NCBI RefSeq assembly: GCF_045037415.1 | Contig: NZ_CP173438.1 | Strand: one strand, 5' to 3' | DNA from: Escherichia coli | GTDB lineage: Bacteria > Pseudomonadota > Gammaproteobacteria > Enterobacterales > Enterobacteriaceae | DNA: 64,000 nucleotides | Shown: positions 1 through 6,000 of the stretch, in pieces | Position numbering within the stretch: position 1 is the stretch's first letter | Layout: the number at the start of each line of letters is the position of its first letter | Position numbers: made by a program

Positions 1-3000
1 AGAATGCGGCGATGGCGGCGATAACCACCACGATTACGATTACCCAACGGGATTTATAACTGCCTTTCATCGTTAAGAGTTTCTCTTCCTGAAACGTTTC
101 GCGGAATGATACTAGTGTAGCCAGCCAATAAGGGAGAAAAATGGAGGAATTATGAAACACTGTCGGGAATCGTCTGAATGACGGGCACTTTTGCGAGCAC
201 GCATCCAGTAATAACACATGAAACTATTTTATCTACGCGTTAGCGATAGACTGCTTGCATGGCGAAAGGAGATAAGCCGACGATTTCAGCGGGACGCTGA
301 AACGGGAAAGCCCCTCCCGAGGAAGGGGCCATAAATAAGGAAAGGGTCATGATGAAGTGGATCATCATCGTGGTGCTCTTAGTCATAAGCTTCCCGGCTT
401 ACTAAGACTACCAGGGCGGGGGAAACCCCGCTCAACCCTCATTCCTGAAAGTATGCCTTCACGGTCCAATTGTCAATCCGCAGACTTTGCAGTCTGCGAT
501 CCTGCCAGCAAATATTCTTTGCGAGTCGTTACGCAATAATCACACTTGAAACTATTTTATCCGCAAGTCAGCGATAGACTGCATACAGGGCGAAAGGAGG
601 TAAGCCGAAGATTTCAGCGGGACGCTGAAACGGGAAAGCCCCTCCCGAGGAAGGGGCCTTAAATAAGGAAAGGGTCATGATGAAGCTACTCATCATCGTG
701 GTGCTCTTAGTCATTAGCTACCCAGCATACTAAGACTACCAGGGCGGGGGAAACCCCGCTCTACCCTCACTCCTGAAATTATGTCACTCAACCCTTGTTG
801 TCAATCTGTAAGCCCACGTTCTTGCGAGGCGAATAGCAAAATCTTCTGCGCCGCCGGGCCTAATTCTGAAAGTTTCTTCGTTTGCTCTTATTTCATTATT
901 GCAGTCGGTATGATACCGGACCTCAATAATTCTCTAAGAAAGGATTTCTTATGAGCGAACAAATCACGTTTGCCACCAGCGATTTTGCCAGTAACCCGGA
1001 ACCACGTTGCCCCTGCATTTTGCTGCTGGATGTTTCTGGTTCTATGAACGGTAGACCCATTAATGAACTTAACGCCGGATTGGTTACCTTTCGCGATGAG
1101 CTGCTTGCCGATTCGCTGGCCTTAAAAAGAGTGGAACTCGGCATTGTGACGTTCGGCCCGGTGCATGTGGAACAACCCTTTACCAGCGCCGCTAATTTTT
1201 TCCCGCCCATCCTGTTTGCCCAGGGCGATACACCAATGGGCTCTGCCATTACCAAAGCCCTGGATATGGTTGAGGAGCGGAAACGTGAATATCGTGCCAA
1301 TGGTATTTCCTATTATCGTCCGTGGATTTTCCTGATCACCGATGGTGCACCAACCGATGAGTGGCAGGCTGCCGCCAACAAAGTGTTTCAGGGGGAAGAA
1401 GATAAGAAGTTTGCCTTCTTTACCATCGGCGTTCAGGGGGCGGATATGAAGACGCTGGCACAAATCAGCGTTCGTCAGCCTTTGCCACTGCAGGGATTAC
1501 AATTCCGTGAACTGTTTAGCTGGTTATCCAGTTCGCTGCGTTCGGTTTCCCGCTCCACGCCGGGAACGGAAGTTGTGCTGGAAGCGCCAAAAGGCTGGAC
1601 GTCAGTGTGAGCTGGCGACTGGTCTATGCATCAGCCGTTGGAACGTCGCACATCAGTGCGGACTTGCCTTGCCAGGATGCCTGCCAGATACAGGTTGCCT
1701 GGCTAAATGACCAGCAGCCATTATTGTCGGTATTTGTCGCTGATGGCGCAGGTAGCGCCTCGCAGGGAGGCGAAGGTGCGATGCTCGCCGTCAATGAAGC
1801 GATGGCTTATATGTCGCAAAAAGTGCAGGGCGGGGAATTGGGGCTTAATGATGTCCTCGCAACGGACATTGTGCTGACCATTCGTCAGCGACTTTTTGCC
1901 GAGGCGGAAGCCAAAGAATTAGCGGTTCGCGATTTTGCCTGCACGTTTTTGGGATTGATTTCATCAGCTAATGGCACCTTGATTATGCAGATTGGCGATG
2001 GCGGCGTGGTGGTAGATTTGGGTCACGGTTTGCAACTGCCGCTCACGCCGATGGTGGGGGAATATGCCAATATGACGCACTTCATTACTGATGAAGATGC
2101 CGTTTCCAGACTGGATACTTTCACCAGCACTGAGCGTGCGCACAAAGTTGCAGCATTTACGGATGGTATTCAGCGACTGGCGTTAAATATGCTGGATAAT
2201 TCTCCGCATATGCCTTTCTTTACCCCGTTTTTCAATGGACTGGCGTCAGCAACGCAGGAACAACTCGATTTATTACCTGAATTGTTAAAGCAGTTTTTGT
2301 CCAGCCCGGCGGTAAACGAGCGTACGGATGATGATAAAACGTTGGCACTGGCGCTGTGGTTACCATGAAACCCACTTTATATACTGCTACTGGTGAGTGC
2401 GTTACGCCAGGCCGTGAACTGGGCAAAGGCGGCGAAGGTGCGGTTTATGATATCGAGGAGTTTGTCGAGAGCGTCGCCAAGATTTATCACACGTCGCCTC
2501 CCGCCTTAAAACAGGACAAACTTGCCTTTATGGCTGCGACAGCTGACGCGCAGTTGTTGAATTATGTCGCCTGGCCGCAGGCAACGCTTCACGGTGGACG
2601 AGGTGGAAAAGTTATCGGTTTTATGATGCCAAAAGTTTCTGGTAAAGAACCGATTCATATGATCTATAGCCCGGCACATCGTCGCCAGAGTTACCCTCAT
2701 TGTGCGTGGGATTTTCTACTCTATGTTGCGCGCAATATTGCTTCATCTTTTGCTACGGTTCACGAGCACGGGCACGTCGTGGGTGACGTAAACCAGAACA
2801 GCTTTATGGTAGGTCGCGACAGCAAAGTGGTGATGATTGATAGCGACTCCTTTCAGATTAATGCCAATGGTACACTGCATTTATGCGAAGTCGGCGTGTC
2901 GCATTTTACGCCGCCAGAGCTGCAAACCATGCCATCATTTGTCGGCTTTGAACGCACAGAAAATCACGATAATTTTGGCCTTGCGTTGCTGATATTTCAC

Positions 3001-6000
3001 GTCTTGTTTGGTGGGCGGCATCCTTATTCCGGTGTACCGCTTATCTCTGATGCGGGTAATGCGCTGGAGACGGATATTGCCCATTTCCGTTATGCCTACG
3101 CGTCAGATAATCAGCGACGTGGTTTAAAACCGCCGCCACGATCGATTCCGCTGTCGATGTTACCGGGCGATGTTGAAGCCATGTTTCAGCAGGCATTCAC
3201 GGAAAGTGGCGTGGCAACCGGGCGTCCGACGGCAAAAGCGTGGGTAGCGGCACTTGATTTACTACGCCAACAGTTAAAGAAATGTACCGTTTCGGCAATG
3301 CATGTTTATCCCGGTCATTTGGCTGACTGCCCATGGTGTGCGCTGGATAATCAAGGTGTTATCTATTTTATTGATCTCGGCGAAGAGGTCATTACCACCG
3401 GCGGGAATTTTGTGCTGGCGAAAGTCTGGGCGATGGTGATGGCGTCAGTAGCACCGCCAGCATTGCAATTGCCATTACCCGATCATTTCCAGGCTGCTGG
3501 CAGGCCGCTTCCTTCAGGCCTGTTAAGGCGCGAATACATCATTCTGATTGAGATCGCACTGTCAGGGTTATCGCTGCTGCTTTGCGGCCTTCAGACAGAA
3601 CCGCGTTATATCATTTTGGTTCCCGTGCTGGCGGCTATCTGGATTATTGGCAGCCTGACAAGCAAAGCGTACAAAGTAGAAGTCCAGCGACGAAGAGAGG
3701 CTTTTAATCGCGCAAAAATGGACTATGACCATTTAGTCAGCCAGATCCAACAGTTGGGCGGGCTGGAAGGTTTTATCGCCAAACGGGCGATGCTCGAAAA
3801 AATGAAGGACGAAATTCTTGGGTTACCGGAAGAAGAAAAGCGCGATCTGGCAGCACTTCACGACACCGCAAGGGAACGGCAGAAGCAGAAGTTTCTGGAG
3901 GGATTTTTTATTGATGTTGCCTCTATTCCCGGCGTTGGCCCTGCGCGTAAAGCGGCGTTACGGTCCTTTGGTATTGAAACAGCAGCGGACGTTACCCGAC
4001 GGAGCGTTAAGCAAGTTAGGGGTTTTGGTGATCATCTGACCCAGGCGGTTATCGACTGGAAAGCGAGTTGCGAACGCCGTTTTGTTTTCAGGCCGAACGA
4101 AGCGGTAACGCCTGCAGACAGACAAGCGGTAATGGCAAAAATGGCCGCCAAACGACATCGGCTGGAATCGGCGCTGACTGTCGGTGCGACAGAGTTGCAG
4201 CGATTCCGCCTTCAAGCTCCAGCACGGACCATGCCGTTGATGGAACCGTTACGTCAGGCGGCAGAAAAACTGGCTCAGGCGCAGGCTGATTTAAGCCGTT
4301 GCTGAGCCAGTTTTCAATTAACGAAACACCACTTCCGCCCAGCGTGCCAGCCCGGCGGTGACGGAGCCAAAGTCATCGCCACCTGCAATCGGAATGCCCG
4401 GCAACTGTTCTGTCAGCGCTTTTTTAATCAGCGGTGAACGGGCGCTACCGCCGGTCAGATAGATAACATCCGGTTTTTCCTGGGCGTTATCCAGCGCCAG
4501 TTGCACCTGTTCCAGAATCCGCGCCAGTGGCTGGTTGAGGGCGCTTTCCAGCCCTTGCTGGCTAATCAGCGTAGCCAGTTCATCGCTGATAAACGGCAGT
4601 GAGGCGCGGGTTTCCGCTACGCTTGAAAGCGCAATTTTGCTCTCTTCTGCGCTACGTACCAGGCGATAGCTTAAACGCTGACGCCAGACTTTCTGTAACA
4701 GGGCCACTTTTTCCGGTTCGCGGGCATCGCGTACCAGATCGTTAAGCAGACGACCGTTGGCACTACTGTAGAAATCACTTTGCGCAGGTACGTCGTTGAT
4801 GGCAACCGCATTCCACCACGGCAGAATCGGCAGGGCGATGCCTTTTTCGGTTTCGCCCCCCATGCCCAGTAACGGCATCAGGTTCTTAAACGCCAGTGCG
4901 ATATCCAGATCGTTACCACCAATACGGCAACCACTATGACCCAGGAGGCTGGCTTCACGATCGAGACGCGAACGCCATTGCGGCCCCATCAGCAGCAATG
5001 AACAGTCAGTCGTACCACCGCCGATATCCACTACCAGCACTCGTTTTTCTTCCTGCAAGGTGGCTTCGTAATCCAGCCCAGCCGCGACCGGCTCGTACTG
5101 GAATACCACATCCTTAAACCCGGCACGCTTCGCCGCGCGTTCCAGAATCCCTTGCGCCTGGGTGTTTGCTTCATCACCGCCCAGCCCCTGGAAGTTGATC
5201 GGGCGACCAATCACCGCCTGAGTAATTGCCTCCGGCAGCTGCGCCTGCGCCTGTTGGCGAATGTGCAACATCATTGCGCAGACCAGATCCTCAAACAGCG
5301 CTACCTGCTGCGGTTTTAAGCCGCTGGCACCGAGGAACGATTTTGGTGATTTCACAAACCACACTTCTTCCGGATCATCAATGTATTGTGCCAGTGAAGA
5401 AAGACCGAACTGCACGCTTTTCGCCGTGACATCGATATCTTCTTCGCGGTTATAACGAATCGCCCGACGCAACAGCGCCTGCGTTTCATCGTCGTCTGCC
5501 GGAACATCATGATGGCGGTACAGCCATTCGCTTACCGCTTCACGCGTTGGCGCGCAAAGCATTGAAGGCAGCAGCGTGCTGTCGTTTTCCATTTTTAGCA
5601 AATGCGGTTTACCGTCGCGCATGACCGCCACTGAACAGTTTGCTGTACCGTAATCAAAACCAATAAACACGAAATAATCCCCATGCCGGTGAAGAAGGGG
5701 CGTGACTTTAGCGAAATGTTGCCGTCGCGACAACCGGAATATGAAAGCAAAGCGTAACGTCTGAATAACGTTTATGCTGAAAGCGGATTAACAAGGAGAT
5801 GCGATGTATACCCTGAACTGGCAGCCGCCGTATGACTGGTCGTGGATGTTGGGATTTCTCGCCGCCCGTGCGGTGAGCGGCGTGGAAACGGTCGCGGACA
5901 GTTATTATGCCCGTAGTCTGGCGGTAGGCGAATATCGCGGCGTGGTGACTGCTATTCCGGATATAGCCCGCCATACTCTGCACATAAATTTAAGTGTAGG

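Follow-up and report, generated by a model that had tools for sequence, protein, structure and literature searches.

The yegL-pphC-yegI genes of Escherichia coli: a predicted stand-alone TerY-P triad related to that of ter operons and distinct from the antiphage family of the same name

Compact units in which a von Willebrand factor A (vWA) protein, a PP2C phosphatase and a Ser/Thr kinase are encoded in this order go under the name TerY-P. The class is said to have been defined by Anantharaman, Iyer and Aravind in 2012 from the comparative genomics of ter operons, and an antiphage TerY-P family, composed of TerY, PP2C and STK_OB, was reportedly described by Gao et al. in 2020. Here we analysed the yegL, pphC and yegI genes, located at positions 951-4305 of a 64,000-nucleotide (nt) stretch of the E. 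coli contig NZ_CP173438.1 (hereafter the window). Earlier work has established the genes, the two enzyme activities and the concept of the triad: YegI and PphC constitute a Hanks-type kinase/PP2C pair that has been characterised in E. coli. Judging from sequence comparisons, yegL-pphC-yegI is a TerY-P triad in the comparative-genomics sense and probably belongs to the ter-operon type, in which the kinase is followed by a zinc ribbon. The name TerY-P spans two barely related families, and PADLOC recognises just one of them. Placing the triad in the ter-operon branch, outside the branch tested against phages, corrects an easy over-annotation.

As a reference for the ter-operon type we used the IncHI2 plasmid p1618-mcr (NZ_CP091545), the ter genes of which run in the order TerY, TerX, TerY, TerY with TerY-C, a PP2C of 545 amino acids (aa) and a kinase of 499 aa. 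YegL shares 31% identity with the ter-operon TerY over 181 residues (E 4e-25), and its main relatives in a tblastn search of plasmids were TerY paralogues of ter clusters. PphC matched the ter-operon PP2C over the whole domain (E 2e-5), and alignment of a YegI-family profile with the ter kinase by hhalign gave a probability of 99% (E 5.9e-18) over 325 columns that include both the kinase and the zinc ribbon. The TerY-P architecture proposed by a first-pass annotation of this DNA is therefore borne out in its comparative-genomics meaning, since all three proteins are homologous, in identical order, to the IncHI2 ter triad: a TerY-like vWA protein, a PP2C_2-type phosphatase and a kinase followed by a Cys-rich ribbon. 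The two versions nevertheless differ in setting and in size. The ter version belongs to a larger ter cluster that also holds TerD, TerX, TerW and TerY in three paralogues, of which one carries TerY-C, whereas yegL-pphC-yegI stands alone, with neither ter genes nor restriction genes at the E. coli locus. The ter PP2C bears a long N-terminal extension, and the ter kinase is soluble and, unlike YegI, has no transmembrane hairpin, coiled coil or helix-hairpin-helix (HhH) module. TerY-P is likewise described as a kinase fused to a zinc ribbon in the CoCoNuT paper (PMC11090510), the modules of which resemble the E. coli triad in their TerY-like vWA protein, PP2C and kinase with C-terminal zinc ribbon, and are linked to restriction-type loci; by description, they differ in being built into large helicase/HEPN/McrBC operons, whereas triads of the yegL-pphC-yegI type have no conserved partner genes.

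The antiphage family gave a different picture. The reference here was the TerY-P system of E. coli G3/10 (NZ_CP060075; L013 8001-11260), a homologue cloned for phage assays, the published sequence of which was located in the G3/10 chromosome; it encodes a vWA protein of 277 aa, a PP2C of 239 aa and an STK_OB kinase of 561 aa, and its genes carry the RefSeq label 'TerY-P anti-phage system...'. The likeness to yegL-pphC-yegI resides in the three protein classes, their equal order, the compact arrangement and a kinase with a predicted C-terminal nucleic-acid-binding module, but the sequences are barely related or unrelated. PADLOC profiles recognised the G3/10 proteins strongly (TerY, PDLC02224, 3.5e-173 and 572 bits on the vWA protein; PP2C, PDLC02222, 5.6e-108; STK_OB, PDLC02223, 9e-265). 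On the window proteins, the TerY profile covered a partial stretch of YegL below the level of a significant match (E 0.021, 12.3 bits), the PP2C profile did not match PphC even at E<=10 and the STK_OB profile did not match YegI; searches of the three proteins with NCBIfam and PADLOC together assigned no specific family. Direct comparisons were marginal or null: E 0.005 between YegL and the G3/10 vWA protein, a BLASTP E of 1.3 with no alignment between PphC and the G3/10 phosphatase, and 72% probability between the YegI profile and STK_OB, limited to the N-lobe and generic catalytic core. YegI has no OB fold; in its place the C-terminus comprises the transmembrane hairpin, coiled coil and HhH module. 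The ter-operon triad also failed to match the PADLOC profiles, while the G3/10 control was positive; these negatives were therefore dropped as evidence against TerY-P in general. The profiles are narrow, and a negative result excludes the antiphage family only, because the ter-operon triad fails them too. The link to antiphage TerY-P drawn in the first-pass annotation accordingly does not hold. Our literature search retrieved no connection of yegL, pphC or yegI with phage defence, a phage phenotype or TerY-P.

The three genes lie on the + strand and overlap, and the window as a whole is 100% identical to E. coli 4/1-1, in which RefSeq names them yegL (vWA domain-containing protein), pphC (protein-serine/threonine phosphatase PphC) and yegI (protein kinase YegI). 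Reading of the open reading frames (ORFs) placed yegL at 951-1610 (219 aa), pphC, also known as yegK, at 1607-2368 (253 aa, GTG start) and yegI at 2365-4305 (646 aa, with the RefSeq ATG start at 2365), which agrees with the earlier description of three overlapping genes at this place. The yegL stop codon and the pphC GTG start share the sequence GTGA, and the pphC stop codon and the yegI ATG share ATGA, so that each junction is an overlap of 4 nt. Overlaps of 4 nt and 13 nt had been proposed; the former is correct for yegL/pphC, whereas the latter requires yegI to start at the in-frame upstream GTG 2356 that opens the longest ORF (2356-4305). The same yegI start and 4-nt overlap have been described in REL606 (bioRxiv 10.1101/819920). 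The overlaps suggest that yegL, pphC and yegI are cotranscribed in this strain. The leader between the last Sib RNA gene and yegL (805-950, + strand) contains an AAGGA ribosome-binding site; a promoter scan of this leader found no consensus sigma-70 promoter, no internal terminator rose above chance, and the promoter and terminator scans performed no better on the locus than on shuffled sequence. Published expression under the conditions tested is undetectable or very weak.

YegL is a vWA protein with a complete metal-ion-dependent adhesion site (MIDAS), as had been proposed. It matched Pfam VWA with an E value of 5.9e-10, and the five MIDAS residues are all present: D27, S29 and S31 in the DxSxS motif (nt 1029-1043, + strand), T94 (nt 1230-1232) and D131 (nt 1341-1343). 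These positions are 96-100% conserved in 76 orthologues. The same orthologues conserve a Ser-rich tail beyond the vWA fold (residues 185-219, nt 1503-1607, + strand) with the pattern WLSxSxxxxSxS(xPG). The N-terminus carries a conserved FAxNPExRCPC motif. Of the three proteins YegL is the best conserved, with a median identity to the E. coli protein of 62% across phyla, compared to 40% for the PP2C and 38% for the kinase; the Methanoregula YegL still shares 61% identity, versus about 40% for PphC and YegI. The dedicated homologue search with YegL returned E. coli sequences only.

The phosphatase assignment of PphC was also upheld. PphC matched Pfam PP2C_2 with an E value of 4.8e-52 and possesses the conserved Asp residues D24, D46, D131, D186, D242 and D243, D46 (nt 1742-1744, + strand) being a metal-binding one. 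The purified enzyme is an active Mn-dependent PP2C-like phosphatase that dephosphorylates autophosphorylated YegI (bioRxiv 10.1101/303594).

YegI itself gave no match to Pfam Pkinase; the profile matched 94 of 113 diverse YegI relatives. On the evidence of these relatives, of the fold search and of published assays, YegI is a Hanks-type Ser/Thr kinase despite the Pfam negative. Its kinase domain (residues 1-300, 2365-3264, + strand) has a bilobal kinase fold with an ATP-binding Lys and a catalytic Asp, and is atypical in its VGDVNQNS catalytic loop and in having DSD in place of DFG. Residues G22, K39, D141, N143, D159 and E185 are invariant among the 113 relatives, even at identities as low as 33%. 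Published assays show YegI to be an active Ser/Thr kinase that prefers Mn and depends for its activity on K39, D141 and DSD159-161 (bioRxiv 10.1101/819920). The concern that the kinase-like protein might lack catalytic residues does not apply, because the residues are present and both the kinase and the phosphatase are active in vitro (10.1101/819920, 10.1101/303594).

Downstream of the kinase domain, residues 303-327 (3271-3345, + strand) form a predicted zinc knuckle or ribbon. Its putative ligands C307, H313, C322 and C325 are invariant in the 113 relatives and in 30 C-terminal variants, and line up with the Cys-rich ribbon in the kinase of the ter operon. A transmembrane hairpin follows (residues 389-433, 3529-3663, + strand), with hydropathy peaks near residues 400 and 424 and model helices at 389-409 and from 418, leaving a periplasmic loop of only a few residues; published experiments (10.1101/819920) show a two-pass inner-membrane topology with both termini in the cytoplasm. 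The C-terminal part comprises a putative DNA-binding module, a tandem HhH at residues 512-571 (3898-4077, + strand), flanked by coiled-coil helices at residues 434-511 and 583-645 (nt 3664-3897 and 4111-4299, + strand) that were delimited from the secondary structure of the model. The Pfam HHH_5 profile matched YegI only marginally (E 0.001) and 36 of the 113 relatives at E<=0.1; the GxG hairpins IPGVGP and VRGFGD are conserved, and the model agrees with the HhH call. This AlphaFold model, built on the 113-sequence alignment, reached a predicted local distance difference test score (pLDDT) of 94.4 and a predicted template modelling score of 0.79; an earlier run on 37 close homologues had yielded a poor kinase domain (pLDDT 64). 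No significant PDB match to YegL, PphC or YegI came out of sequence searches. Overproduction of YegL and overproduction of YegI have each been found to raise endogenous DNA damage (bioRxiv 10.1101/354589).

We then asked how far triads of this type extend beyond Escherichia. At E<=0.001 the YegI family numbers 9597 cluster representatives, and the majority of the 150 best-ranked ones listed are full-length proteins. With one genome scanned per species, YegI-type kinases were present in at least 505 species at 34-62% identity, among alpha-, beta-, gamma- and deltaproteobacteria, Actinobacteria, Acidobacteria, Planctomycetes, Chlorobi, Cyanobacteria, Synergistetes, Clostridiales and the Methanoregula/Methanomicrobiales archaea. 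At loci with enough upstream DNA, which span Proteobacteria, Actinobacteria, Acidobacteria, Cyanobacteria, Clostridiales and Methanoregula, a PP2C gene lay directly upstream of the kinase gene in 74 of 74 cases and a vWA gene was present in 72 of 74; the triad was also intact in all 11 further contexts read individually. No fourth conserved gene or effector emerged from 80 loci, the recurrent neighbours of which are lineage-specific, and ter genes (TerD, TerC, TerB and others) occurred neither beside the YegI-type triads read nor among these recurrent neighbours. The closest enterobacterial relative recovered outside Escherichia is that of Klebsiella, with 62% identity and at a different locus. 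The triad is a self-contained, horizontally mobile cassette that has spread across phyla, archaea included.

Ten contexts with about 10 kb on each side were read for neighbouring functions. Restriction-modification, GmrSD, Abi, BrxR or Wadjet genes were present in five of them (Piscinibacter, Chromobacterium, Klebsiella spallanzanii and two metagenomic contigs), a suggestive share, though of a small sample that has no formal baseline; the Chromobacterium triad also adjoins Tn7-like transposition genes. The remaining five contexts were housekeeping, plasmid or unannotated. In some relatives the C-terminal module of the kinase is replaced by SH3, TPR or a topoisomerase-type zinc finger, and such swapping is what would be expected of a sensor module. 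In a Sphingomonas plasmid (L095 3515-6995) and the relatives P0243-P0376, the kinase and zinc knuckle are kept and the C-terminus is a topoisomerase-type C4 zinc finger, SH3 or TPR. On an Agrobacterium vaccinii plasmid (L094 4719-5600), the coiled-coil and HhH half of YegI (residues 428-623) exists as a stand-alone protein of 293 aa, encoded right after the radical-SAM His-Xaa-Ser genes hxsB, hxsC and hxsA and before an SH3-domain protein, an arrangement found on ~25 Agrobacterium plasmids. In a few Burkholderiales only, a conserved gene of 69 aa and a signal-peptide SNase (thermonuclease-like) gene lie upstream of the triad (L003 7719-8474, L098 7700-8501, L015 and L027).

Within E. coli, yegL-pphC-yegI was found in 5402 of 5426 complete genomes, in line with its earlier description as a conserved locus. 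The G3/10-type TerY-P is rare and accessory: it is present in 4 of the 5426 genomes, where both kinds of triad coexist, and in G3/10 it adjoins a type I restriction system and an IS5-family element. In 1934 genomes (36%), K-12 included, pphC and yegI are separated by yegJ, an insertion on the opposite strand (L002 4233-4694 in K-12), which breaks the translational coupling seen in the window, where the corresponding site, at ~2365, is free of it. yegJ is itself disrupted by IS1 in several genomes. One strain has an IS5 within pphC. Strain ET5 is devoid of the triad and retains 43 nt of the 5' end of yegL and ~70 nt of the 3' end of yegI (L100 7030-7330); it was considered as an ancestral empty site and rejected as such, the two stubs revealing a secondary deletion.

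The triad is more variable than the genes next to it: 3361 records at 90-95% identity were obtained for positions 700-4400, compared to 11 for the adjacent 3.7 kb (4400-8100, yegD-alkA-dgcE). Diversifying selection was considered as the cause and rejected, as the ratio of nonsynonymous to synonymous divergence (dN/dS) relative to K-12 is 0.07 for yegL, 0.17 for pphC and 0.14 for yegI, next to 0.06 for yegD and 0.11 for alkA, and purifying selection dominates. Because dN/dS is low while dS is higher in the triad (0.15-0.19) than in yegD and alkA (0.11-0.12), the divergence points to old allelic lineages under purifying selection, or to recombination, and not to decay. Four PLSDB records filed as plasmids (CP088875, NZ_OL790696, CP137936 and CP061244) carry yegL-pphC-yegI with 90-97% protein identity; their sizes (0.37-4.8 Mb) suggest chromosomal sequence. 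The PHROGs families phrog_28389, phrog_37072 and phrog_37888 match YegL, PphC and YegI from end to end (495-1511 bits). A phage origin was rejected, as no deposited phage genome bears the genes, and these families are probably singletons from a mis-delimited prophage.

The published data have demonstrated the kinase activity and its dependence on K39, D141 and DSD, the membrane topology and the removal of YegI phosphorylation by PphC. DNA sensing, the part of YegL as a substrate or an effector and the biological role of the triad we infer from anatomy, conservation and neighbourhoods. On this reading the three proteins could make up a self-contained phosphorylation switch, one of the TerY-P class, a proposal for and against which we see the scales as level. 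In such a switch, PphC would strip the activating autophosphorylation from YegI and keep the kinase off. DNA near the membrane, whether incoming foreign, damaged or stalled, would engage the coiled-coil/HhH module, DNA being the most economical guess for the signal; this engagement would favour kinase dimers, and trans-autophosphorylation would outpace its reversal by PphC. The activated kinase would then phosphorylate the Ser-rich tail of YegL, other proteins, or both. YegL is the best candidate for the output because of its conserved serine tail and metal site, and its phosphorylation might change the ligand of that site, with a stress or abortive response as the outcome. A vWA protein as a phosphorylated output has a precedent in the archaeal ArnA/ArnB pair, in which the vWA protein ArnB is a kinase substrate. 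Further points in favour of the switch are the DNA damage caused by overproduced YegL or YegI, the swapping of the kinase tail, the defence-type genes near relatives and the maintenance of the genes in E. coli. Escherichia would have fixed one copy of the cassette in its core genome, almost silent in laboratory culture.

It is possible, and we put it forward tentatively and with more doubt than conviction, that YegI-type triads are a distinct and widespread stand-alone immune module directed against incoming DNA (phage or plasmid), the kinase sensing DNA on the cytoplasmic side of the membrane, with YegL as an effector controlled by phosphorylation. A defence role of yegL-pphC-yegI is plausible but unproven. 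If it were true, nearly every E. coli would have an unrecognised immune module in its core genome, unseen by current defence-finding tools. Several observations weigh against the proposed switch, against DNA as its signal and against a defence role. No experiment connects these genes with phage, plasmids, metals or the sensing of DNA, and the only known substrate of YegI is YegI itself. The HhH call depends on the marginal Pfam match and on motif conservation, and the sample of defence-like contexts is as small as stated above. In E. coli the triad lies among efflux-pump genes, ibs/sib, yegD and alkA and not in a defence island; a mobile immune system would seldom be fixed in 99.6% of genomes; and yegJ parts pphC from yegI in more than a third of E. 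coli genomes with no obvious gene decay. This analysis adds as leads the mobility of the cassette across phyla, the swappable tail of the kinase, the strong conservation of YegL and the restriction genes that often lie nearby.

Other explanations of the locus were weighed against the same data. That it is a member of the validated antiphage TerY-P of Gao 2020, PADLOC and DefenseFinder (TerY, PP2C and STK_OB), with the same working, can hardly be maintained: the three domain classes and their order are equal, and secondary sources report protection against T7-like phages by that family, but the profile tests refute membership, PADLOC hitting G3/10 strongly and the window proteins at best at E 0.021, and the direct comparisons with G3/10, the missing OB fold of YegI and the accessory, restriction-linked distribution of the G3/10 type versus the near-fixation of yegL-pphC-yegI all speak the same way. 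A housekeeping Ser/Thr kinase-phosphatase pair that tunes physiology (stationary phase, envelope or translation) in the manner of PrkC/PrpC or PknB/PstP, with YegL as an accessory scaffold, is rather improbable in our judgement. Such operons are common in bacteria, the locus is near-universal in E. coli and under purifying selection, and weak stationary-phase expression as well as recurrent yegI mutations in long-term evolution lines have been reported. Yet YegI differs from the kinases of these pairs in having neither PASTA repeats nor another extracellular sensor, in its atypical VGDxxQxS catalytic loop and DSD motif and in its cytoplasmic coiled-coil/HhH modules, and its genes form a mobile cassette with an obligatory vWA partner. 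The patchy and clearly horizontal spread, at 34-62% identity across phyla and into methanogenic archaea, the invariance of the three-gene cassette in unrelated neighbourhoods and the finding that the nearest enterobacterial relative recovered outside Escherichia is the 62% identical Klebsiella one at another locus are difficult to reconcile with a housekeeping function, and the vWA partner, being the most conserved of the three, is ill-suited to the part of an accessory scaffold.

A sensor of metal or xenobiotic stress, with the metal site of YegL reporting ion status and the kinase relaying it, we regard as unlikely. Among characterised proteins the nearest relatives are those of the ter operon (TerY, PP2C and kinase), the MIDAS is complete, kinase and phosphatase are Mn-dependent, the mdtABC efflux genes and alkA lie nearby, and a hypothesis of this kind for the TerY-P triads of tellurite clusters is summarised in PMC11090510; against this, ter genes are absent from the surroundings of YegI-type triads described above, and YegL and both ends of YegI are cytoplasmic, the periplasmic loop being too short to count more than a few residues. 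Still more doubtful, indeed very improbable, is the view that the triad was acquired horizontally long ago, has been silenced and survives as a decaying remnant that no longer has a function in E. coli. The nearly undetectable transcription in culture and lack of a consensus promoter, the yegJ insertion, the IS5 in pphC, the ET5 deletion and the excess of divergent records over the flanks could all be read in this way, but the frames are intact here, dN/dS resembles that of yegD and alkA, the purified proteins work as enzymes and 5402 of 5426 genomes retain the locus. The phosphorylation switch proposed above finds a further parallel in the Deinococcus radiodurans genes DRA0331-DRA0334, in which a vWA protein accompanies a membrane Ser/Thr kinase and a Mn-dependent PP2C in a DNA-damage context (bioRxiv 10.64898/2026.01.23.701218); likened by description, these genes differ in their order and in an extra FHA adaptor.

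The triad is flanked by mdtA and two Ibs toxin genes on one side and by yegD, alkA and dgcE on the other, and the neighbours named in the first-pass annotation, ibs/sib and yegD, were both recovered. yegD is convergent to yegI, with 12 nt between the stop codons (window 4303-4320), a gap that contains no terminator-like hairpin. Directly upstream of yegL, two tandem Sib RNAs are encoded on the - strand at 334-476 and 662-804 (Rfam SIB_RNA, 136 and 143 bits), opposite the ibs ORFs at 349-405 and 677-733 (+ strand), and constitute type I toxin-antitoxin units Ibs/Sib. Their copy number depends on the strain: ET5 has one, and some of the matching sequences carry an extra piece.

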